Assembly (NCBI GenBank): GCA_016782495.1 | Contig: JADHYL010000001.1 | Coordinates: 34,360 to 98,359, forward strand | Direction of reading: 5' to 3' | DNA from: Candidatus Omnitrophota bacterium | GTDB taxonomy: Bacteria; Omnitrophota; Gorgyraeia; JABMRN01; RBG-13-46-9 | DNA: 64,000 nt | In this document: in pieces, positions 9,182-35,113 of the stretch | How positions within the stretch are numbered: the stretch's first letter is position 1 | Layout: every line of letters begins with the position of its first letter | Program-made: the position numbers and the translations under genes | The notes under the pieces: model-generated | Seen by the model: the letters and a program-made list of their open reading frames with translations, nothing else | Database searches by the model: none | Told to the model about the DNA's origin: nothing

Positions 9182-10354
9182 TCATCTATTCCAGCTTACC
9201 ACCCTGAACGGCTCTTCTTCGCCACCCGGGCCAAGCAATCCGTCGGGACTTAAAAGTTTGTGGTTATAAGTTATATGGCTTAGTAAATCCCAGATTCTTA
9301 TGTTTCTCGCGGCCAAAAGAGAACCCGTAACGGTAACGCGCGAAAAAGCCGCGACAACACGGAAATCCCGCACCGCATAAACAACGGCCTCCTCGACTTC
9401 CAGCCGGTAATATATATATATATCACCCTGAGTGCTTCCGTCATCACTTCCTTTTGCGATAACAACATTTTTATTACCTGTTTTTATCTGGTTTAACCGG
9501 CCGCGGATAAGGATCTTATCCGCGACAATACCTCCGTTCAAGTTTACAGTCCCCTGTAAAGTAGCGGTGCCGTTAACATACACTATGCCGTTTCCGGGGG
9601 TGAGGTTGGTCGTAGTGCCAACTGAACCGAAGGTGGTATCCCCGTTATAATAATCGCCGCTGGCTATTGCTTGGGTTTGATAGTAGGCGTAGTTGAATTG
9701 GGGAAATAATACCGGCGCAACGTCAACCCCAACGTCAGAGCCCTGGGTTACGCTTCCCGCAATCTGTATACTGCCCCCCCATCCTGTTGATTGAAATACC
9801 CTGTTAACGGCTGAGACGCTCCCATCGCAACACCCGTAGCCACAGGGGTCTACGTCAATAAGCGCGATTGCCTGGGCCCTTAGTCTTACATCGTTATTCG
9901 CGTGAAGATCGCCATTAACATCCGCAAGACCCAGGAAAAATGCCCTGAGCCTTAAATCAGTGCCGGCTGCCATCATATAAAAAAGTGCCGTGGCAGTATT
10001 GTCTTTCACTTCCACCGCCACTGTCCGCGAAATGCCATCGAAAGCGCCAACCGACGTCAGAAGCACCCTGCCACCGGATTCGGTCACCGTAACGTTATAA
10101 CCGCCCCCGCCAAAGGTATTATCCACTAAAGGAAAATATGTGTCTTTGGCCATAAAACCGTTTTGCACTAATGTTGCCAGGCCGTCGTTTATACCCGCTT
10201 CGGCAATATACTGTGCCGTCGTGGATTTTTTCAGGTGCCGGACCATGTGGACATCCTGCAGTAACATATTTGAGGCACTTACACCTATCAAAACCATAAG
10301 CATGGAAATAACTATAACGGTTATAAATATTGCGCCTTTGGTATTCTTAATCAT
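9182..10354 (-). CDS. PilX-like type IV pilus assembly protein / minor pilin-like protein, 390 aa.
   Basis: N-terminus MIKNTKGAIFITVIVISMLMVLIGVSASNMLLQDV resembles the PilX N-terminal domain, with a hydrophobic segment and no classic G-FTLIE cleavage box. It is the last gene of the pil operon and has a Gly/Thr/Val-rich beta-type C-terminal region. Confidence 0.55.
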   Translation of the reverse strand: MIKNTKGAIFITVIVISMLMVLIGVSASNMLLQDVHMVRHLKKSTTAQYIAEAGINDGLATLVQNGFMAKDTYFPLVDNTFGGGGYNVTVTESGGRVLLTSVGAFDGISRTVAVEVKDNTATALFYMMAAGTDLRLRAFFLGLADVNGDLHANNDVRLRAQAIALIDVDPCGYGCCDGSVSAVNRVFQSTGWGGSIQIAGSVTQGSDVGVDVAPVLFPQFNYAYYQTQAIASGDYYNGDTTFGSVGTTTNLTPGNGIVYVNGTATLQGTVNLNGGIVADKILIRGRLNQIKTGNKNVVIAKGSDDGSTQGDIYIYYRLEVEEAVVYAVRDFRVVAAFSRVTVTGSLLAARNIRIWDLLSHITYNHKLLSPDGLLGPGGEEEPFRVVSWNR

Positions 10355-12498
10355 TTTCCGGTATTCCTCGGCTCGACCTCGGTTTTCATGCCGGTTTTGT
10401 AGTCTAAGCCTTGAAAATCTTCGTAAACGGTTACATCAAACTCGATACCCTTCATTAGATCATTTCCATCTACAAGAAGTTTTATAATTCCGTAGTCCGC
10501 ATCTTGCGCAAAATAACCGCTTATGTCACACATCTTTGTCTCGCCCGGCCAGGTGACTTTAATATTATCGACCCAGGGCGCGCTAACGCCCGGAATCAGA
10601 TACTTCCCGCATGCCGGTTGCGTGCAGTTTATGACACCGTTATTTTTATAGTTCTCGTCTGTGACGTTTACGCTCGGATGATCGATACATGTCCAATACG
10701 GCGTTGTGGAAAGCTCTGCTTTGGCCTGCGCATATCTTCCTGTACCGGCTACAGACCCGACAGTCCACGCTGCCACACCCATAAGCGGGTCATCGCTTGA
10801 ACGGCCGTAGACCGAAACAGATCCAAAGCTCGACCAATTCATGGAATCATAACCCGGATTCGCTATTTTCGTATCATAAATCTGTGTCGTAACACTACCG
10901 CTTTGCAACCAAACCTCAAGCGAGGCCTGCGCATAAATATTCGCGGATGAAGTGTACTTTTCGTCGGCGAACGGAGGCAAAACTTCATGTCCGAGATAAT
11001 CGAGCGGATCAGACCACCTAGCCTGTGCGGCATGATCGCCGCCCATCAAATATGAATTTGTGTCAGCGGGCTGGGTTCCGGCCCAGTAGCTTGTATATGA
11101 GGTTCCTGACATATAGAAGGTCACAAAGTAATTTTTTGAAGAATCAATCGGAAAAATCGCCCAATTCGAATATGCAGTGCCACCTGCGGCAATCGTTATT
11201 CCCGGCGAAATCCCGCCTAGGGCATCAGTAAAATAAAGTTGTATCCGCGTTGTACCTGGTGTTGTGATTACCGGAGGATTCACGCAATCTTCGTTGCCCG
11301 CTCTTTCATCAAAATATGCGGCATTAATTGTCAAGGTTTGAGCTGAATGCGACTCAAACTTGATCCTCAGTAAATCTCCGCCTGAATCGATATTATCGGA
11401 GAAAATAAGATTTCTTACGGTTACTCCGGAGAGCGCAGTAGCAAAATCCGCTTTTACGGCATCGCCGTTTACGCTACCGGCTTCAACCTCTGCCGTCCAC
11501 ACGATCTCATTTCCCTCCTCGGGATCCGGCAATTTCACAGATAAATCATCGCCTGCCAGAATCGTATTGTTTCTGACTGAGTTGTCGAAATTGGCTTCAA
11601 GCCAGGTGTCATAATATAGCCTAAAGTTAACATAGTCACCGATTGCGTCAGAGTTGTATTCCCGGAAATTATTTCCGCTCCAAAGTAAATCGGGACCAAC
11701 TTTTGCGCTGCCGTCACCGCTTGAGGCTTGCGGCGCGTAAACTTCCATTTCCTGCTGGCAGCCGCTCGGCGCAATCGAAAGCGTGTCTATACCTAATTCA
11801 TATCCCGACGAATCGGCATTTTGTCCGGTTACCTCGAACGTGAAATCATGATTTCCCGATGTAAGCCTGATGCTACCGAACGTCACGTTGTCGCTTCTTT
11901 TGACAGGATCGCTGTACCCGTCAAATTCCTGCGCCTTCGGATTTATAATAAAACTTGTGAGCTTCTCGACTATAACCTTAGGTGGAATAGTTGCGTTAGC
12001 TGCGTTGGGCCCTCCCGAACCGTCTCCGCTTGCGACGACGTTGGCAAGCTGCGTCTCTCTTTGGGCATCATCGACTAATACGTCGTGGTTGGCAGTAAAC
12101 TCTGTTCTTCGAAGCTCCCTGTATCCTGTCGACGGGTTATCGTAAACGTGGTATATGACGCTCTTGTCCCAGTTGATGAGTCCATCTGCGTCTAAATCAA
12201 AAAAGCCGTTTGCGTCAGGGGGTGCCATCGGAAAACTTATGGCGGTGTATTCGGTTTCACCTGCGGGCTTGTAAAGACTTAGGTATGTAGTGCTTGAAAG
12301 CCTGAGTTCTCCCTTGATCCGTTCCATGGCGACTTGAAGGTCAACTCTGTTCTTTGTTCTTATTCTGTCAAGCGCCCAGTTTTTATAGGCGAAATACCAC
12401 GCGCTTAAGACAATGCCGATCAAGATGGCGCCCAGAAGAACCGACACCATAAGCTCGATCAGCGTCATGCCTTTCTTATGATATTTTTTTCGTTTCAT
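10351..12498 (-). CDS. Giant 715-aa protein with a class III (prepilin) signal peptide. PilW-like minor pilin or putative pilus-tip adhesin.
   Basis: KKG|MTLIELMVSVLLGAILIGIV is a canonical prepilin peptidase cleavage/methylation motif, with Glu at +5. It is followed by about 680 aa of Asn/Gly/Thr/Trp/Tyr-rich sequence with several Cys pairs. Confidence 0.7.
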   Translation of the reverse strand: MKRKKYHKKGMTLIELMVSVLLGAILIGIVLSAWYFAYKNWALDRIRTKNRVDLQVAMERIKGELRLSSTTYLSLYKPAGETEYTAISFPMAPPDANGFFDLDADGLINWDKSVIYHVYDNPSTGYRELRRTEFTANHDVLVDDAQRETQLANVVASGDGSGGPNAANATIPPKVIVEKLTSFIINPKAQEFDGYSDPVKRSDNVTFGSIRLTSGNHDFTFEVTGQNADSSGYELGIDTLSIAPSGCQQEMEVYAPQASSGDGSAKVGPDLLWSGNNFREYNSDAIGDYVNFRLYYDTWLEANFDNSVRNNTILAGDDLSVKLPDPEEGNEIVWTAEVEAGSVNGDAVKADFATALSGVTVRNLIFSDNIDSGGDLLRIKFESHSAQTLTINAAYFDERAGNEDCVNPPVITTPGTTRIQLYFTDALGGISPGITIAAGGTAYSNWAIFPIDSSKNYFVTFYMSGTSYTSYWAGTQPADTNSYLMGGDHAAQARWSDPLDYLGHEVLPPFADEKYTSSANIYAQASLEVWLQSGSVTTQIYDTKIANPGYDSMNWSSFGSVSVYGRSSDDPLMGVAAWTVGSVAGTGRYAQAKAELSTTPYWTCIDHPSVNVTDENYKNNGVINCTQPACGKYLIPGVSAPWVDNIKVTWPGETKMCDISGYFAQDADYGIIKLLVDGNDLMKGIEFDVTVYEDFQGLDYKTGMKTEVEPRNTGK

Positions 12499-12502
12499 AG
12501 TA

Positions 12503-12931
12503 TTATTGGATGGTCGAAAAAATTGTAGTAAGAGTTACGGAAGCATTGTCTTTCCAGTTACCCCTGTATTTGTAGATGACTACGACTTCAAATTGCGTGC
12601 GGTTTGTATCGAGCGGGGTTACCGTTGTCGAACGGTTAAACTCGCCGTTGGGGTTTTGGCCGCCGGTCTCGTCTATTATTGTATCGGTTTCGCGTAAATC
12701 GGTTAAATAATCAAACCCGCTTGATTCTATAACGGTTCTTGCTCTTTCCATTCTTGCCGTGGCAAGATTCGTCGCTGTATATTCATGGTCGATTCTTTTT
12801 GACATATCAAGCGTTTGAACAAATATAAAAAGGATGCCCGTTATGACCATGGCAAGAATTACGGCCGAAAAGAGTACTTCAACCAGGGTAATACCGTTTT
12901 CTTTTTTAAGGGGGTTACTCAAAATACACAT
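12503..12931 (-). CDS. PilV-like minor pilin, 142 aa.
   Basis: ENG|ITLVEVLFSAVILAMVITGILF prepilin motif. Followed by LATARMERARTVIESSGFDYLTDL, which resembles PilV. Confidence 0.65.
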   Translation of the reverse strand: MCILSNPLKKENGITLVEVLFSAVILAMVITGILFIFVQTLDMSKRIDHEYTATNLATARMERARTVIESSGFDYLTDLRETDTIIDETGGQNPNGEFNRSTTVTPLDTNRTQFEVVVIYKYRGNWKDNASVTLTTIFSTIQ

Positions 12932-14393
12932 CCTCTACGTGAAGCGTCGAGTTGGTCTTTATCGTTATCTTCTTTCTGAATTTGCGTTCCAGGAAATGGA
13001 ACATGTCCCTAAAAGAGGCCGTGAGATAATCCGCTACATCCGGATGCGCCGTTAGGATAATTTCTCGCGGTCTCCTTTCTCTCGCAAGACGCTGGAGCTT
13101 GCGAACGGCTGCGATTGCGATTGTAGCAGGTGTTTTTACACGCCCCATGCCGTTGCAATAGGGGCATTCCCTGAACGATACGCTCTCGAGGCTCTTTCTC
13201 ACTCTTTGGCGCGTCATTTCGACGAGGCCAATCGGTGAGATAGTTACAATATTTATTTTTGCCTTATCCCGTTTAAATGCAGCCTCGAGTGTTGTGTATA
13301 CCTGTTTTCGATGCGTTCTTTCGTTCATATCTATAAAATCTATTACTATAATCCCGCCTATGTCTCTTAACATTACCTGCCTGGCAATCTCGGGGGCTGC
13401 CTCCATGTTTGTTTTGAAAGCCGTTTCTTCAGGCTTTGTCTTGCCTTTATACTTTCCCGTGTTTACGTCTATGGCCACGAGGCCTTCTGTCTGTTCGATA
13501 ATGATGGATGCCCCGCTTTTTAAAAACACCTTCCTGTGAAATATCCCTTCTATGCGGTCTTCGATGCCGTATCTTTCATAGAGGGGAGTTTTTCCCTTAT
13601 AATAAAAAATCTTTCTGTTCAACGCAAGGTGTATGGTGCTTGCAAATCGGGAAATTTTCCTGTATTCATCTTTTGAATCAACCAGGATTTTTTCCACATT
13701 CTCGTCGAGATAGTCCCTTATGATACGTAGCGGCAGGTCGTATTCCTCATAAATCAAAGTCGGGGCTTTTTGTTGCTCGGCGCGGCGCTGGATGCGTACC
13801 CACAAATTCGCAAGATACCGGAACTCGAGCCTGAGTTGTCTTGGTTTTACCCCGACGCTTTGAGTCCTTGCGATACAACCGATGCCTTTTGGTAAATCAA
13901 TTTTCCGAAGGGTTTCCTTAAGCCTCGATCGGTCCTCGCGGCCTGCTATGCGCTTTGAGATTCCGACCGTTTCGTTAAAGGGCATGAGCACCAAGTATTT
14001 TCCCGGCAGGCTAATATCGGTTGTGAGCAAGGGTCCTTTTGTTCCGATCGGTTCCTTTACGATCTGGACGAGGAGTTCCTGGCCCTTTTTCAGGCGTTCG
14101 AGCGGGCTTTTTTTTTGTTCGGCCCTCTTTTCGATAACTATCTCTTCATCGAGCAGCGTCTGAACGGTTTTACCTTCTCTTTCGTAAATATACAAAAAAC
14201 CGTTTTTTCCTGTCCCGATATTAACAAAGAGCGCGCCTATTCCGGGAACAACGGATTCTATCACACCCTTATAGATGTTACCGGCCAGGCGTGGTTGACC
14301 GGCTCTCTCGATATGAAATTCTTCGAGCTCGCCCCTCTGGGTAATTGCAACCCTCTTCTCATAGGGTTCGACGTTTATCAGAATTTGCTTCAT
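12915..14393 (-). CDS. rng: Ribonuclease G, RNase E/G family. The likely start is MKQILINVEPYEKR at 14393; the track ORF extends to 14540.
   Basis: S1 domain (GNIYKGVIESVVPGIGALFVNIG), the RNase E/G catalytic core, and a zinc-link CPxCxGxG (CPYCNGMGRV). Confidence 0.85.
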   Translation of the reverse strand: MKQILINVEPYEKRVAITQRGELEEFHIERAGQPRLAGNIYKGVIESVVPGIGALFVNIGTGKNGFLYIYEREGKTVQTLLDEEIVIEKRAEQKKSPLERLKKGQELLVQIVKEPIGTKGPLLTTDISLPGKYLVLMPFNETVGISKRIAGREDRSRLKETLRKIDLPKGIGCIARTQSVGVKPRQLRLEFRYLANLWVRIQRRAEQQKAPTLIYEEYDLPLRIIRDYLDENVEKILVDSKDEYRKISRFASTIHLALNRKIFYYKGKTPLYERYGIEDRIEGIFHRKVFLKSGASIIIEQTEGLVAIDVNTGKYKGKTKPEETAFKTNMEAAPEIARQVMLRDIGGIIVIDFIDMNERTHRKQVYTTLEAAFKRDKAKINIVTISPIGLVEMTRQRVRKSLESVSFRECPYCNGMGRVKTPATIAIAAVRKLQRLARERRPREIILTAHPDVADYLTASFRDMFHFLERKFRKKITIKTNSTLHVEDVYFE

Positions 14394-14406
14394 CTCAATA
14401 ATATCC

Positions 14407-16059
14407 TTACTGTTTTTTCTTCTTTCGAAAATCAAATAACGGCTTAGGTTTCGCCTTCGGGGTCTTCGCCCTGGTATCACCGGGGAGCTCCACAAATACC
14501 TCTTTTTCGTAAACAACCGCCCCTTCAGACTTCTCGCCAATAATTTCTCCGGGCAACTTTACTTCTGATACGTTACGCGTTGCAAGGCGATTTATTTCCC
14601 GCAGGTCTTTTACAATGTGGACTGTTATGAAGAAAATAAGTTCGGTCTTTTCATTGTCAACCCCCTCATGCTTTACAAGCCCTCCTATAAATGGTATATC
14701 ACCGAAAAGATCTCCAAGAAGCGGCACCTTTTTCACTATATTGATAGTATTGTCGTTTATAAGGCCGCCTATAAAAATTGTATCGCCGTCCTTTACCATG
14801 ACCTGCGTATCCGCTACCCTTGTCGACCAGAGAGGGGCGCTGAGCTCCTCGCTTATTTTCTCCACTCCTAAATAGTTGCTGATTTCCGGCTTGAGTTCCA
14901 CTACAATCTCCCTATTTTTGTTAACGTGCGGCGTTACAAGGAGCCTGATACCGAGCTCTTTGGCTTCATACCCGCTTATTACCCATCTGCCGGTCTCTTC
15001 GGTCTGGTCAAAAGTCGGGAAATTGTAGACTCTTCCGACAAGGATTTTTGCCTCTTGATTATTCAATGTTGTAATTCTCGGGTTCGATATAATTTCGGTT
15101 CTGCGCCTCTGTTTCAAAAGTTCAAGCACTGCCTGAAATTGCGAAAAATCGAGAGCGCCATAAGTAAACTGATCGGTGCCGACAAAAGGAAAGGCAACGG
15201 TCCCATCCATTGTCGATGCGAGTGGAAAGTCGGTTACGCCTGTTGTTGTTACATAATTGCCGGCGGCGTCTATTGTCCCGCCAGCGCTGCCAGTCTGCCC
15301 AAACGGATAAAATCGTTCCAGGGTGTGTGCAACTATATCGCGAGTCCCCCAATTTGCAAACGGTATCGTCGTTGGCCGTTTTGCGCCTATCGCCGCTATC
15401 CTCATCGTCCAGTCAATGCCCATTTTTTCATCTTTTTCCAAGAGTGTCTCGAATATTCGCGCCTCTATCATGACCTGGGGTGTTTTCCTGTCTAATCTCT
15501 CAACCACCCGTTTTATCCTGTAGGTATTGGTCGGGAGATCCGTTACGAGAAGTGAGTTGGTTCGCGTATCGTAAGTTATTTTACCGCGGTCGGTCAGCAT
15601 CTCCTTCACGGCATCGTGCGCTACTTCGGCGTTGGTGTAATTTAATTCTATGACCTCCGTGGATAGCTCGGCTTTCTTCAGGCTATCTATTGTGACAACC
15701 CTTATTATGTCGCCTTCGCGCTCGTACGCATAGCCATAATTCTTCACGATTATATCGAGTGCCACGTCCCATGGTTTATCCGTCAGCTTCAACGTTACCG
15801 TACCTGTCACGTCAGGGGCCGTGACTATGTCGACCCCGCTCACTTCTGAGAGGTAATTAAGAACCGCACTTATGTCAGCGTCTTTGAAATTTACCGTAAC
15901 ATGCCCAGGCTTGACATATACAACATCCTCCATATTTTTGGGTGCTTTGTCGCTTGCCAAATCTACCGATGGCGTGATTTCCTGTGAATAGACGCACTTA
16001 GTAAAAGTGAATAATGCAAGGAAAGCCAGGATCAGGCATAATTTTTTTCTGCTCATCAC
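14407..16059 (-). CDS. pilQ: Type IV pilus secretin, 550 aa.
   Basis: Signal peptide, then secretin N-domains (VTVNFKDADISAVLNYLSEVSGVDIV), then the C-terminal secretin domain (VMVKDGDTIFIGGLI...VPLLGDLFGDIPFIGGLV). Lies immediately downstream of pilMNOP. Confidence 0.85.
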   Translation of the reverse strand: MMSRKKLCLILAFLALFTFTKCVYSQEITPSVDLASDKAPKNMEDVVYVKPGHVTVNFKDADISAVLNYLSEVSGVDIVTAPDVTGTVTLKLTDKPWDVALDIIVKNYGYAYEREGDIIRVVTIDSLKKAELSTEVIELNYTNAEVAHDAVKEMLTDRGKITYDTRTNSLLVTDLPTNTYRIKRVVERLDRKTPQVMIEARIFETLLEKDEKMGIDWTMRIAAIGAKRPTTIPFANWGTRDIVAHTLERFYPFGQTGSAGGTIDAAGNYVTTTGVTDFPLASTMDGTVAFPFVGTDQFTYGALDFSQFQAVLELLKQRRRTEIISNPRITTLNNQEAKILVGRVYNFPTFDQTEETGRWVISGYEAKELGIRLLVTPHVNKNREIVVELKPEISNYLGVEKISEELSAPLWSTRVADTQVMVKDGDTIFIGGLINDNTINIVKKVPLLGDLFGDIPFIGGLVKHEGVDNEKTELIFFITVHIVKDLREINRLATRNVSEVKLPGEIIGEKSEGAVVYEKEVFVELPGDTRAKTPKAKPKPLFDFRKKKKQ

Positions 16060-27342: not shown

Positions 27343-28413
27343 CTATCCTTCTCTCCTGATTAGTTTGCGAAGCTCATCGGGATTTGTCGATTTCTGCAGA
27401 CACACCTCTGGGGTTACAGCGCCTTTGTTGTAGAGATCCGCCAGCGATTGGTTCATCGTTTTCATCCCGTCTTTCTGTGAAGTTTGTATGACCGAATATA
27501 TCTGGTGAACCTTGCTCTCGCGAATCAAGCTCCTTACAGCAGGTGTTGCCACGAGGACTTCGGTGGCAAGTACCCTGCCCGATTCCCCGGCCTTCGGCAA
27601 TAACTGTTGCGAAACTATGGCAAGGAGCACGAACGAAAGTTGCGTCTTTATCTGCTGCTGCTGGTGGGCGGGAAACACGTCAATAACCCTGTTGACGGTT
27701 TGCACGGCGTCAGAGGTATGCAGGGTGGCGAAAACGAGATGCCCCGTTTCAGCGATTATCAAAGCGCTTTCTATGGTTTCCAGGTCTCTCATCTCGCCGA
27801 TCAGGATGACGTCGGGGTCCTGTCGTAAGACGTGTTTTAAGGAATCGCCGAACGAATGCGTATCCGTGTAGACCTCTCGCTGTTCCACAAGGGCTTTTTT
27901 GTTTTTGTGCACGAATTCTATAGGATCTTCGATGGTTACGATGTGGCACTGGCTGTGGTCATTTATATAGTCTACCATCGAGGCAAGTGTCGTAGATTTT
28001 CCGCTTCCTGTCGCTCCAGTAACCAATACAAGCCCCTTTGGCTTATTACAGAGTTCCGTTACGATGTCGACAGGGAGCCCGCATTGTTCGAAATTTAAAA
28101 TATCAAAAGGAATAAGCCTTATTGCGCAACCAACCGATCCTCTCTGATAAAAGATGTTAACCCTGAATCGGGCCACATTTTTAACCTCGAAAGAAAAATC
28201 CAGCTCCCAGTCTTTCTCAAACTGCTTTATCTGTTCCGGGCTTAACAAGGCGTAGGAAGCTTGCTTTGTTTCCTCTGCGTTTAAGGGTGACTTTCCGATC
28301 GGATAAAGCTTTTCGTCAATTCTTAAATGGATCGGCGAATTCGTCGTGATGTGCATGTCAGAAGCATTCTTTTCCAGCATCATCTTTAACAAACCCTTTA
28401 TATCTATTCCCAT
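27343..28413 (-). CDS. pilT: Twitching-motility retraction ATPase PilT.
   Basis: 356 aa. Walker A VLVTGATGSGKSTTLASM, plus PilT-specific segments (VNIFYQRG, AHQQQQIKTQLS). Confidence 0.9.
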   Translation of the reverse strand: MGIDIKGLLKMMLEKNASDMHITTNSPIHLRIDEKLYPIGKSPLNAEETKQASYALLSPEQIKQFEKDWELDFSFEVKNVARFRVNIFYQRGSVGCAIRLIPFDILNFEQCGLPVDIVTELCNKPKGLVLVTGATGSGKSTTLASMVDYINDHSQCHIVTIEDPIEFVHKNKKALVEQREVYTDTHSFGDSLKHVLRQDPDVILIGEMRDLETIESALIIAETGHLVFATLHTSDAVQTVNRVIDVFPAHQQQQIKTQLSFVLLAIVSQQLLPKAGESGRVLATEVLVATPAVRSLIRESKVHQIYSVIQTSQKDGMKTMNQSLADLYNKGAVTPEVCLQKSTNPDELRKLIRREG

Positions 28414-28414
28414 A

Positions 28415-29845
28415 TTATACCCCTGCTCCTATTATTTTATTTTTTCCTTCTTCTTTGGCTTTGCCAAGCGCCGCTTGGGCCTTCTCCAAGATTTCGTTCG
28501 CGGTTGGCCCGTCAAGCGGGTTTTCGCTTACCCCGCAACTTACGGTTAGCGTATTGCCTTTTTCTTCGGATAATTGCATCTTTTCGACTCGCTTCCTGAT
28601 CTTTTCCGCAATTTGCAAGACAGCTTTTTTATTTACTTCTGGCATGATCAATGCAAAGAGATCCTTGTCAAACCTGCCGGCTTTTCCCAGCGGACCGGAA
28701 AGCTCCGTTATGAGGTGGCCGATCTTTTTCAGTGCGACCGCCGCCTGTGCCTTGCCCTTTTCGGTCTCGTATTTTTTGAAGTCATCGATATCCAGCAGGA
28801 TAAAGGAGCACGGCCTGTGAGAAATAAAGGAACGTTGTATTTCCTCATTTAGACGCCTTTTCATAAAATCCTTGTTGAACAAGCCCGTAAGCTGGTCCTT
28901 TATTTGCAGCTTTTCGGCCGTTTTCATCAGAACGTCGTTTTCGATGGCGATCGCGATCTGCTCTGTAAAAACCTTTATTATTTCCACATCGTCATTTGTA
29001 TATGTAAAGTTCTTTATCCCGTTGCCTGTGACGAGCAGGGCCTTCACATCCCTGATGGTAAACAATGGAAAGATTACTATGTTCTCGCATTTGTATTTTT
29101 CTTTAAATTCCTGGTTTTCGCGTGAGAACTTGGAGGAAGCGTCCATTACGATATGTTTTTTCTTCAGCATGGCCTTGCCCAGGAGCCCGCTTCCGCTCTC
29201 GATGGTCGCTGTTAAAAGATTTTCATTGACCAGGTTTTGAGACAGTCGCACGGTAAGCGGCTTGTCCGGCTCATCGGAAAAATAGAGCGCTGCAAATCCG
29301 CCGTCGTAAAGCTGGGCTATTTTAAGAAGTACTATCTCGATAATGCTGTCTAATTTGACGGACGAGGATATAAGCTCCCCTATTTGCAGGACATTGGATA
29401 AAACGGAAACCCTCTTTTGTATTTCCGCGTTTATCTCCTTCATCTTCTCCTGGTAATCCTTGAGATCCATTATGTTATCCCTGATTTTCTTTGTTAAGAA
29501 GTTTATCGCCTCACCAATTTCACCGATTTCGTCTTCAGTCCCAACGGGAACCTTTCTTTCAAAATTTCCCTCTCTGATGATTTTGGTCTCGAGGGCAACG
29601 TCTATAACGCGCTCGACAATTCCTTTTGCAAGAAATAGCCCCAGCCAGGCGATCGCGATGGAGAAAAGAACCATCGTGCTTATCTGGCCGAGCGAAATCT
29701 CCCCGTCAAATAATATGAAATTGTTTACTATGTACCCGATAACAAGGAGCGGTATTACCGACATTAAGCTAAACGCTATCAATAATTTATAGCGTAGCCC
29801 ATAGGGCAAAAGCGAAAGTCTCTTTAAAAAACTTTTTTCTTTCAT
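28415..29845 (-). CDS. Membrane-anchored HAMP-GAF-GGDEF-like protein with a degenerate GGDEF site. Putative regulator.
   Basis: Two N-terminal transmembrane helices and a HAMP-like linker, then a GAF-like middle region. The C-terminal GGDEF fold starts KDQLTGLFNKDF...ILLDIDDFK, but the signature motif reads AGRFDKDLFALIMPE where RYGG(D/E)EFxxLLP is expected. Confidence 0.7.
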   Translation of the reverse strand: MKEKSFLKRLSLLPYGLRYKLLIAFSLMSVIPLLVIGYIVNNFILFDGEISLGQISTMVLFSIAIAWLGLFLAKGIVERVIDVALETKIIREGNFERKVPVGTEDEIGEIGEAINFLTKKIRDNIMDLKDYQEKMKEINAEIQKRVSVLSNVLQIGELISSSVKLDSIIEIVLLKIAQLYDGGFAALYFSDEPDKPLTVRLSQNLVNENLLTATIESGSGLLGKAMLKKKHIVMDASSKFSRENQEFKEKYKCENIVIFPLFTIRDVKALLVTGNGIKNFTYTNDDVEIIKVFTEQIAIAIENDVLMKTAEKLQIKDQLTGLFNKDFMKRRLNEEIQRSFISHRPCSFILLDIDDFKKYETEKGKAQAAVALKKIGHLITELSGPLGKAGRFDKDLFALIMPEVNKKAVLQIAEKIRKRVEKMQLSEEKGNTLTVSCGVSENPLDGPTANEILEKAQAALGKAKEEGKNKIIGAGV

Positions 29846-29908: not shown

Positions 29909-29937
29909 AGTATACTTGACAGGAATTATTTTGTCAA
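29909..29937 (-). promoter_or_regulatory. Sigma70-like promoter for the GGDEF-pilT-mshEN-pilB-pilB-pilC operon. Minus strand reads TTGACA, a 17-nt spacer, then TATACT. The spacer ends in TGTCAA, forming a palindrome with the -35 box.
   Basis: Minus strand reads TTGACAAAATAATTCCTGTCAAGTATACT. Followed by the ribosome-binding site AAAAAGAGGTGG before the ATG at 29845. Confidence 0.45.
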
Positions 29938-29953
29938 TATAGTGGTAATGGAG

Positions 29954-34039: not shown

Positions 34040-35113
34040 TTATCTCTCTACTTTCGGGCTTACAGAAAGTCTTTTAAGATATTTTATTTCACTAAGTACC
34101 TTACCGGTACCCAACACAACGGCCGTCAGGGGATCTTCGGCGATATGAACTGGTAAGCCTGTCTCTTCGGAGATAAGTTTATCCAGGCCTCGGAGGAGCG
34201 AGGCGGCGCCTGCCAGGATAAGCCCTTTCTCCATAAGATCAGCTGAAAGTTCGGGTGGGGTCCTCTCCAGCGTTATTCTGATAGCTTCGATAATTTGAGC
34301 AATGGGTTCTGCGAGTGCTTCCCTTATCTCCTCACTGGAAACCGTAATCATCTTCGGGAGCCCTGCTATAAGATCCCTCCCCCTTACTTCCAGGGTAAGC
34401 TCTTCGTCTAGAGGATAGGCTGAACCTATTTTAATTTTTATGTCTTCTGCGGTACGCTCGCCGATCATAAGATTGTATGTCTTCTTCAAATAATTTGTAA
34501 TTGCCTCATCCATCTCGTCACCCGCGATTCGTATCGATTTTGAAAAGACTACGCCTGCCAGCGATATTACTGCCATCTCGGTAGTTCCGCCGCCTATGTC
34601 GATTACCATGCTGCCCGAAGGTTCTTGTATGGGTAAACCCACACCTATCGCAGCCGCAATCGGCTCTTCCACCATGAATACTTCCCGCGCGCCTGCGTGC
34701 AATGCCGAATCTTTGACGGCTCTTTTTTCTACCTCGGTGATGCCTGACGGAATCGCAATAACCATCCTAGGCCTTACAAGGCGCCTGGAATTGTGCACCT
34801 TTTTTATAAAATATCTGAGCATCGCCTCGGTAATCTCGAAGTCGGCGATTACGCCGTTTCGCATGGGCCGGATCGCCACGATGCTTCCAGGGGTCCTTCC
34901 CAGCATCCTTTTTGCTTCTTCTCCGACAGCAAGGACGTTTGAAGTGCCGGCTTGGACTGCAACGACCGAGGGCTCGCAAAGAACGATCCCCTGGCCGCTT
35001 ATGTAAACGAGTGTGGTAGCGGTACCTAGGTCGATACCCATGTCGTTGGAAAAAAGACCCAATAAACTATTGAAACCTTTAGAAATGAGTTCTTTTAATC
35101 TGGTAAGATCCAT
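34040..35113 (-). CDS. mreB: Actin homologue MreB.
   Basis: [14 protein letters not shown]...; 357 aa. Strongly MreB-like. Confidence 0.95.

Follow-up and report, generated by a model that had tools for sequence, protein, structure and literature searches.

The type IVa pilus genes of Candidatus Omnitrophota bacterium (assembly GCA_016782495.1) are, in the stretch of DNA analysed here, headed by a gene for a membrane protein with a degenerate GGDEF domain. The stretch, which we call the window, is the 64,000 nt of contig JADHYL010000001.1 between positions 34,360 and 98,359. The explanation that we favour, with somewhat better than even confidence and from sequence comparison, is that the protein is a non-enzymatic, signal-controlled regulator or scaffold of the pilus motor. 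By their sequences its homologs form one Omnitrophota-wide family of about 200 sequence clusters and, as read from the alignment, the degeneracy is an ancient, family-wide state with newly fixed motifs. The gene is the following:

28415-29845, minus strand: whole gene, 476 amino acids with an ATG start, encoding two transmembrane (TM) segments, HAMP, coiled coil, GAF, signalling helix (S-helix) and degenerate GGDEF domain, in this order

A Shine-Dalgarno sequence, GAGGTG, lies 5' of the start codon. The protein is 100% identical to a public one (P0001) from a Candidatus Omnitrophota metagenome-assembled genome, where it is annotated as 'diguanylate cyclase', a name that is probably wrong for the proteins of this family.

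A first-pass annotation of the window had described the product as a GGDEF-domain protein, most likely enzymatically dead, with the signature motif replaced by RFDKDLF and without the inhibitory site (I-site) that binds cyclic di-GMP (c-di-GMP). The strings that it quoted are found at residues 317-327 (DQLTGLFNKDF), 350-357 (LLDIDDFK) and 389-397 (AGRFDKDLF). We set the residues in register by an ungapped alignment to WspR and use the numbering of PleD. The GG(D/E)EF motif of the active site (A-site) is lost as described, but the pentapeptide that stands in its place is DKDLF, and the RF before it is the normal R366-Y367 pair of PleD. The segments concerned are these:

28655-28669, minus strand: A-site position, residues 393-397, DKDLF for GG(D/E)EF (codons gac aag gat ctc ttt), where WspR has GGEEF
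28685-28696, minus strand: I-site position, residues 384-387, GPLG for RxxD, where WspR has RSSD
28737-28790, minus strand: segment with the equivalents of PleD D327, K332, N335 and D344, from the alignment

Residues G368-G-E-E-F372 of PleD correspond to D393-K-D-L-F397, which puts D395 at the position of E370. D327 and K332 are kept (D352 and K357), both guanine-binding positions are lost (N335 is E360 and D344 is A369), and the remaining equivalents are R391 for R366, K415 for R390, K464 for K442 and K468 for R446. The protein is thus without the Gly-Gly turn, the second acidic residue (E371), both base-binding residues and the whole I-site. D327 and E370 are known to bind two Mg ions, N335 and D344 the guanine and K442 and R446 the phosphates; essential roles are reported for D327, N335 and D344, and the I-site is made up of R359, D362 and R390 (PMC7288161). 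There is no second or out-of-register GGDEF-type stretch anywhere in the protein and no RxxD within the GGDEF-like domain, the sole RxxD being at R79 in the HAMP domain. An intact motif elsewhere, or a fold other than that of GGDEF, had been named as what would speak against the first reading; the former is absent, and the fold, as described below, is that of GGDEF. The verdict of a dead enzyme is strengthened, as it would now follow from the N335 and D344 equivalents as well as from the A-site motif. The protein is very probably not a cyclase, and by sequence criteria both the synthesis of c-di-GMP and its canonical binding at the I-site would be impossible for it.

The losses are not a peculiarity of this one protein. 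A sequence search gave 244 homologs at E<=1e-5, the best 120 clusters of which were analysed and 119 full-length members aligned. The homologs analysed have the same architecture, are 39-66% identical, and every named one is from Omnitrophota. The A-site pentapeptide comes in 71 versions among the 119, the most frequent being GGDEF (11), GDDEF (10) and SGDEF (8), with AGDEF occurring too, and in the clade of our own protein it follows the pattern [DE]x[DN][TSIL]F. At the N335 position Asn is found once, against R in 62, E in 18 and H in 11 homologs, and the Mg-binding D327, kept in our protein, is N in 55 (46%) and D in 49 (41%). The full set of D327, N335, D344 and GG[DE]E is present in none of the 119. 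We considered the relatives with a literal GGDEF as possible active cyclases and rejected them, as in all 11 the D327 position is N, G or S and the N335 position is R. The Arg of the I-site, which the first-pass annotation rightly found missing, is absent from all 119 close homologs and rare among some 90 wider representatives, and at no place in the GGDEF-like domain do the aligned homologs share an RxxD in register; an apparent RxxD at position 391 in 31 of them was rejected as an I-site, being R366 followed by the D at G369 of GDDEF variants. The canonical catalytic positions lie between the 43rd and the 84th percentile of column entropy within the domain. Going by this alignment, the catalytic and I-site residues of the family have been released from selection. 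As a separate observation, A369 (28739-28741) makes our protein one of only two among the 119 with Ala at the D344 position, and in about half of the family a Glu at D344 is paired with an Arg at N335; one might speculate that the two form a salt bridge that fills the old guanine pocket.

At the same time the family has gained residues that canonical GGDEF domains do not have. Three motifs stand out in the 119 homologs, with the consensus forms RPC[SAG], PExNK[KR] and ENP[ILV]DG:

28805-28816, minus strand: RPCS, residues 344-347, at the start of beta1 (R 98%, P 97%, C 100%)
28625-28642, minus strand: PE-x-NK-[KR], here PEVNKK, residues 402-407, at the end of beta3 and start of alpha3 (P 98%, E 99%, N 95%, K 100%, K/R 99%)
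28508-28528, minus strand: S-ENP-[LI]-DG, here SENPLDG, residues 440-446, at the end of beta4 (E 99%, N, P, D and G 100%)

A basic residue, K or R, is also present at position 388, at the start of beta2, in 100% of the family alignment. ENP[ILV]DG is the most diagnostic signature against canonical GGDEFs, which at the position of PExNK[KR] have a variable PETxxx. As an internal control we made an exhaustive profile search of 1.84 billion representatives, with a hidden Markov model (HMM) of the domain, built from the family, for the alignment. The search recovered about 90 family representatives (50% clustering), along with fragments, a short form of the protein and giant multi-GAF proteins; the last were rejected as members, their matches being repeat-driven noise and their C-terminal GGDEFs canonical, and were used as controls. 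Nearly all of the ~90 representatives have the three motifs, with the catalytic and I-site positions scrambled. All 18 out-of-family GGDEFs examined from the same search have K332, N335, the RxxD of the I-site, R366 and a canonical or near-canonical GG[DE]EF (one AGDEF and one GGEEL), 16 of them also D327, D344 and K442, and the family motifs are absent from them except for the Cys of RPC in one. The domain HMM gives 237 bits for our protein, ~115-243 (mostly at least 140) for the family, 75-135 for the out-of-family domains and 104 for WspR. As far as sequences can define it, the family is sharply delimited by both its losses and its gains.

The palm of GGDEF domains is ferredoxin-like, with the strand order 4-1-3-2 and neighbouring strands antiparallel. 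The strands of our model run from 346 to 353 (beta1, with D352 at its far end), from 396 to 402 (beta3, with the A-site at its beginning) and from 435 to 442 (beta4), and from this topology we infer that RPC, K/R388, PExNKK and ENPxDG would converge at the former I-site pole, opposite the beta2-beta3 hairpin of the A-site. The I-site has been described as 'antipodal to the A-site' (PMC4937426).

That the domain has the GGDEF fold is confirmed by a profile alignment and by a structural model, two of the checks proposed with the first-pass annotation. The Pfam GGDEF profile matches from position 3 to 161 of its 161 positions (E=1.1e-28, 100.5 bits, cutoff 23.8), and TIGR00254 matches with 9.1e-28 and 97 bits (cutoff 37.4). 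An AlphaFold2 model, for which 66 sequences of the family were aligned, has a mean predicted local distance difference test score (pLDDT) of 84.4, and of ~90 over the GGDEF-like domain, which Foldseek places on the solved GGDEF domains 3ign, 7a7e, 6tts, 5euh and 3i5b with TM-scores of 0.85-0.91 and root mean square deviations of 1.6-2.4 A. The order of its secondary structure elements agrees with the palm-like fold beta-alpha-alpha-beta-beta-alpha-beta-alpha-beta. The parts of the protein are as follows:

29621-29791, minus strand: membrane anchor, TM1 (residues 19-42) and TM2 (53-75), helices 15-45 and 52-91 in the model
29480-29635, minus strand: HAMP, residues 71-122 (Pfam PF00672, E=1.9e-6, 28.5 bits, cutoff 25)
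29354-29479, minus strand: coiled-coil linker, residues 123-164, within a continuous 55-residue model helix (106-160), 8 of 42 columns at least 90% conserved
28940-29353, minus strand: GAF, residues 165-302 (Pfam GAF_2 2.6e-8, GAF 1.1e-6, GAF_3 1.4e-6)
28436-28900, minus strand: degenerate GGDEF-fold domain, residues 316-470 (Pfam, Foldseek), the best conserved domain with 39 of 155 columns at least 90% conserved

In the model a signalling helix of 30 residues joins the GAF to the GGDEF-like domain. A Pfam scan found no EAL domain, and the protein ends six residues past the GGDEF-like domain. The loop between TM1 and TM2 has only ~10 residues, is variable with the highest entropy of the whole protein, and holds no periplasmic sensor domain. 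In TM1, 10 of 24 columns are at least 90% conserved; this was considered as a sign of a specific intramembrane partner and dropped, as all faces of the helix are conserved alike, and we take its motif to be similar to a TM1 common in HAMP-linked sensors. The suggestion that GAF and HAMP provide signal input stood in so far as Pfam finds both domains, but among the domains conservation is lowest in the GAF (entropy 2.22 bits, 11 of 138 columns at least 90% conserved), which is absent from a short form. This short form of ~295 residues (TM-HAMP-GGDEF-like) occurs in Omnitrophota at the same operon position (locus L012, 8001-8885, P0270/P0213), and further proteins of this kind are P0202, P0217, P0248, P0231 and P0266. 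The GAF can be lost, and the HAMP domain with the membrane anchor is therefore the constant input part; in sequence terms the constant core of the family is membrane anchor, HAMP and remodelled GGDEF domain.

The gene order around the gene is the evidence that ties it to the pili. One nucleotide separates its stop codon from the ATG of pilT, and the motor genes follow closely:

27343-28413, minus strand: pilT, the retraction ATPase (TIGR01420, 6.2e-147, 489 bits, cutoff 319)
26884-27339, minus strand: standalone MshEN protein, 151 amino acids (Pfam MshEN 2.5e-19; NF053729 60.6 bits, cutoff 38)
25142-26881, minus strand: pilB paralog a, MshEN and T2SSE ATPase (TIGR02538, 1.3e-193)
23398-25131, minus strand: pilB paralog b, MshEN and T2SSE ATPase (TIGR02538, 7.8e-190)
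22173-23393, minus strand: pilC, the platform protein (Pfam T2SSF, 1.1e-69), the last gene of the closely packed motor block

After pilC come a pilin, a TPR protein, a GT2 glycosyltransferase, pilM, a probable pilN, pilO and the secretin, all on the strand of the motor genes and a few bases apart, and upstream of the gene are mreB-mreC-mreD-PBP2-rodA. The TPR protein (678 amino acids) and the glycosyltransferase (254 amino acids) between pilin and pilM occupy 18810-21620 on the minus strand.

We compared the window with ten other loci obtained by exact-protein look-ups (L001, L004, L005 and L007-L013), in which the protein is 39-66% identical, with the short form and the family member of greatest divergence among them. 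The gene is the first of the series [pilT]-MshEN-pilB-pilB-[REC-HD-GYP]-pilC in all 11 loci, and the tandem duplication of pilB is found in each of them. There are two layouts. In seven loci, the window among them, pilT comes next after the GGDEF-like gene (type A), and in four the standalone MshEN gene comes next and a REC-HD-GYP gene lies between the second pilB and pilC (type B); in two of these, L011 and L012, the MshEN gene overlaps the GGDEF-like gene by 10-19 nt. The universally linked neighbour is the standalone MshEN gene, one or two genes downstream in all 11 loci, and not pilT. Over the 11 loci the gap on the downstream side is 1-78 nt, or an overlap, and on the upstream side at least 93 nt. 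One locus, L008, has no mre/rodA neighbours, and the genes upstream are unrelated and divergent; the linkage to pil is kept there, and the linkage is therefore to the pil genes. In six loci (L005, L007, L010, L011, L012 and L013), the window not being one of them, we also noted a radical-SAM protein of ~580 amino acids (PF19864 and PF04055) encoded between rodA and the GGDEF-like gene.

The upstream gap of the window, 108 bp after rodA, holds a candidate promoter that was recognized from its consensus match and its conservation:

29909-29937, minus strand: sigma-70-like promoter candidate, TTGACA-17-TATACT, 11/12

The same hexamers, with a spacer of 17 (18 in L010), lie 34-92 nt 5' of the orthologous start in L001, L004, L007, L009 and L010, so that the pair is conserved in six of the 11 loci; L012 scores 11/12 and L011 10/12, which brings the loci with at least 10/12 to eight. 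A palindrome over the -35 hexamer, TTGACA-N10-TGTCAA (29909-29943), makes promoter hits appear on both strands, and was rejected as an operator as it is not conserved in the ten loci. The conserved pair in the upstream gap supports the view of the gene as first of its operon, and together with the 1-nt junction and the head position in all 11 loci it bears out what the first-pass annotation had said of a pilT-pilB operon. That annotation also called the protein a candidate regulator of pilus dynamics; we hypothesize the same, now with a linkage conserved over the phylum behind it, and from the conserved gene order it is likely that the protein functions with the pilus motor.

The operon is rich in parts of the kind that handle cyclic dinucleotides. 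The standalone MshEN protein is 62-84% identical across seven aligned loci and far better conserved than the GGDEF-like protein. It has well-kept tandem motifs of the c-di-GMP type, QLGELLIERGVITRAQLEKALQVQ and LIGQVLVLLGFTKEEEIAQALTVQ, the first with a Q where the MshE consensus presumably has R (QLG for RLG). By the NCBI curated model of the c-di-GMP motif (NF053729, cutoff 38), the standalone protein passes with its 60.6 bits, PilB paralog b passes with 44.2 bits and paralog a is borderline with 37.8. The REC-HD-GYP genes are found in the loci without pilT at that position:

L005, 13430-14500: REC-HD-GYP gene
L011, 13614-14684: REC-HD-GYP gene
L012, 12739-13803: REC-HD-GYP gene
L013, 13379-14449: REC-HD-GYP gene

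The motifs HDLGK and HHEHYDGxGYP are invariant in their products, which among solved structures are closest to the cyclic GMP-AMP-specific HD-GYP protein 5z7c (7e-37). The phospho-acceptor Asp of REC is replaced (by E, P or K) in three of the four. No other GGDEF, EAL, HD-GYP or PilZ gene is present among the 46 open reading frames (ORFs) of the window that were scanned. The operon thus has three MshEN domains and, in four of 11 loci, an HD-GYP protein, and its sole GGDEF member is without the residues of a synthase. This raises the question of the source of the messenger for its MshEN and HD-GYP parts.

If the favoured explanation is right, the protein would be a dimeric-type membrane transducer of TM hairpin, HAMP, coiled coil, GAF and signalling helix, with a GGDEF-derived pseudoenzyme as its output. 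The signal would be received in or at the membrane, or through the GAF where there is one, because the periplasmic loop is too short for a sensor domain. As in other HAMP/S-helix rods, conformational signals along the HAMP and coiled coil would reposition the two GGDEF-like domains, a movement that in active cyclases brings two GTP-loaded A-sites together. The output would here be the exposure or the geometry of the new conserved patch, which would contact the standalone MshEN protein, the MshEN N-domains of PilB or both, or else PilT, and the contact would gate extension of the pilus against retraction. We infer both the control of the pili and the identity of the partner, and that the protein acts through protein contacts of the new patch is conceivable, at somewhat less than even odds.

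Several points weigh against such a scheme. The functional tie to the pili comes from gene order and from nothing else; Omnitrophota are essentially uncultured, and the family is known here from sequence alone. The clustering of the new motifs follows from strand topology, not from coordinates, and would need to be read so. The invariant residues of the motifs are mostly charged or polar and suit a pocket for a small molecule at least equally well. Several positions that contact the nucleotide have stayed conserved in the family (K442 in 94%, R446 as K in 90%, R366 in 87%), the E370 position is D or N in 92% and the D344 position E in 94%, where our protein has A, so most members may have some residual nucleotide binding left. 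Finally, MshEN receptors and, in some relatives, an intact HD-GYP protein would be most simply served by a working cyclase.

The points on small molecules lead to the strongest of the alternatives, a non-canonical receptor for c-di-GMP or another nucleotide, in which the remodelled I-site pole is a new ligand pocket, lined by R344, K/R388, E403, N405, K406, K/R407, E441, N442 and D445, that relays to the pilus motor. We consider it unlikely, though clearly worth keeping in mind. The invariant residues are charged or polar and would sit at the canonical place of c-di-GMP binding (PMC4937426), the operon has its three MshEN domains and, in four of 11 relatives, an intact HD-GYP, and degenerate GGDEF receptors are known, such as PelD, which binds through RxxD (PMC7288161). 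Yet RxxD is gone, with the Arg missing in 119 of 119, the R390 equivalent is variable (K, E or D), the new motifs match no known nucleotide-binding motif, and the system already has three dedicated MshEN domains. A bolder and equally doubtful thought is that the GGDEF-derived domain has been rebuilt as a new module altogether, with R344-P-C346, K/R388, P402-E-x-N-K-K/R and E441-N-P-x-D-G446 as a novel ligand-binding or catalytic pocket or as a docking site for MshEN. If this were true, the protein would be central to the regulation of the type IVa pilus motor throughout a phylum that is largely host-dependent, and the MshEN/HD-GYP module would run on a messenger made elsewhere, possibly by no GGDEF enzyme encoded in the cluster.

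The partner could also be sought on the other side, among the cell-shape genes mreBCD-PBP2-rodA, as in ten of 11 loci the gene has rodA on one side and the pil genes on the other, all on one strand. This is improbable: the locus without mre/rodA neighbours is still pil-linked, the radical-SAM gene separates the gene from rodA in six loci, and the upstream gap of at least 93 nt holds a promoter-like element where the downstream junction is 1-78 nt or an overlap. Very unlikely is a diguanylate cyclase with an unconventional active site, or a maker of another cyclic dinucleotide, that feeds a local pool for MshEN. Such a local source would suit the context, some members have GGDEF, SGDEF or AGDEF, K442, R446 (as K) and R366 are retained, and the public annotation says the same. 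But our protein lacks the Gly-Gly turn, E371, N335 and D344, the full set is found in none of the 119, the members with the GGDEF motif have all lost D327 and N335, and the A-site is as variable as surface positions; canonical cyclases in the same search keep their catalytic residues, and D327, N335 and D344 are reportedly essential (PMC7288161). Least credible is a decaying relic, in a protein that works through HAMP and GAF only or not at all. The free drift of the catalytic motif would fit a relic, but no part of the protein is better conserved than this domain (39 of 155 columns at least 90%), and it has 100% invariant residues that are not seen in canonical GGDEFs. Over 200 clusters have it at full length and with a confident fold, and it is never lost where the GAF sometimes is.

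A signal-controlled regulator with a dead GGDEF domain has precedents. Roles as receptor, scaffold or sensor are well established for degenerate GGDEF domains (PMC7288161, PMC12448109), and control of PilB by a protein with such a domain is known from FimX and from the complex FimX-PilZ-PilB (PMC11656802). FimX of Pseudomonas aeruginosa and Xanthomonas is likewise a multidomain protein with a dead GGDEF (GDSIF) in type IVa pilus assembly, and it acts on PilB by protein contact, either direct or by way of PilZ, a small adaptor (PMC11656802, PMC5595344, PMC8389850); by analogy the standalone MshEN protein could have the role of an adaptor. However, FimX is a cytoplasmic REC-PAS-GGDEF-EAL protein that senses c-di-GMP through its EAL domain, whereas the Omnitrophota protein is anchored in the membrane, has HAMP and GAF and is without EAL or any recognisable site for c-di-GMP. 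The GGDEF of FimX is also thought to keep a weak affinity for GTP, for which the base-binding residues are lost here, and FimX is not close in sequence (3hva, E=1.3e-5, against 5e-16 for WspR). The analogy would therefore be a loose one, on the possible mode of action and not on membership of a family. PelD of P. aeruginosa is similar in having a membrane anchor, a GAF and an inactive GGDEF and in being encoded in the operon of the machine that it regulates, but it binds c-di-GMP through an intact RxxD (PMC7288161), has no HAMP, and regulates polysaccharide synthesis. It is not among the sequence matches at E<=1e-3, and where an I-site receptor of the PelD/PopA type has RxxD, five residues upstream of the A-site, and R390, our protein has GPLG (384-387) and K415.

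Among active enzymes Dcsbis/PA2771, the Treponema DgcA, YfiN/TpbB and SadC are alike in domain order and fold. Structures of Dcsbis (4zmu) and of the YfiN GGDEF (7a7e) are among the best structural matches, and the DgcA model NF041606 aligns over residues 141-471. These proteins differ in having an intact GG(D/E)EF, D327, N335, D344 and usually RxxD, and the scores against NCBIfam equivalogs are far under the cutoff (for DgcA, 97 bits where the cutoff is 370). One of them, the membrane cyclase SadC, interacts with the pilus alignment protein PilO, according to work cited in PMC11656802. GdpP/YybT (PF24898) also has a degenerate GGDEF after a membrane anchor and a sensor domain, and a few family members match PF24898 weakly (P0213, 31.6 bits with a cutoff of 30, and P0031); GdpP, however, has DHH/DHHA1 phosphodiesterase domains that are absent here, and our own protein does not match PF24898 at E<=0.1. 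A GTP sensor of the PdeA/CC3396 type is not what we find either, with N335 and D344 lost and no EAL output.

A dead GGDEF is thus by itself ordinary. New are the phylum-wide family, the loss of A-site and I-site together, the new patch and the linkage to type IVa pili and MshEN. In the literature on c-di-GMP or pili of Omnitrophota, or on degenerate GGDEFs with PilB, we found no earlier description of the family. The main paper on Omnitrophota genomics describes type IVa pili as nearly universal in the phylum and as a key trait for attachment to host cells or predation, and it highlights them with no mention of this gene, GGDEF or c-di-GMP (PMC10066038). More than 200 public clusters under the name 'diguanylate cyclase' fail the sequence criteria for a cyclase, and counts of c-di-GMP synthases in Omnitrophota would be inflated by them. 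A signal-receiving first gene of the motor operon is also the obvious place to seek the control of pilus extension and retraction in these nanobacteria. The family is moreover a natural example of the evolution of a pseudoenzyme, in which catalytic and allosteric residues drift and a new invariant patch is fixed at the opposite pole, with canonical relatives as the control.

Some features of the window lie outside these questions. Downstream of the secretin and RNase G genes, at 9182-12498 on the minus strand, are genes for two unusually large pilin-like proteins, of 715 amino acids (with an N-terminal methylation motif) and 390 amino acids (PilX_N), which may be minor pilins or tip adhesins. 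The RNase G ORF (12915-14540, minus strand) would, if it began at its first TTG, share 134 nt with the 3' end of the secretin ORF (14407-16059, minus strand), and its true start is probably further downstream. All ORFs with a domain match in the whole window (1-64000; 46 scanned) are on the minus strand. Over 64 kb one orientation is shared by pro/obg, the pil cluster, mreBCD-PBP2-rodA, lgt-lspA-dksA-ileS and a complete dcw cluster (ftsQ to murE). In bins of 2 kb the GC skew is nearly always negative, with one bin at +0.001.

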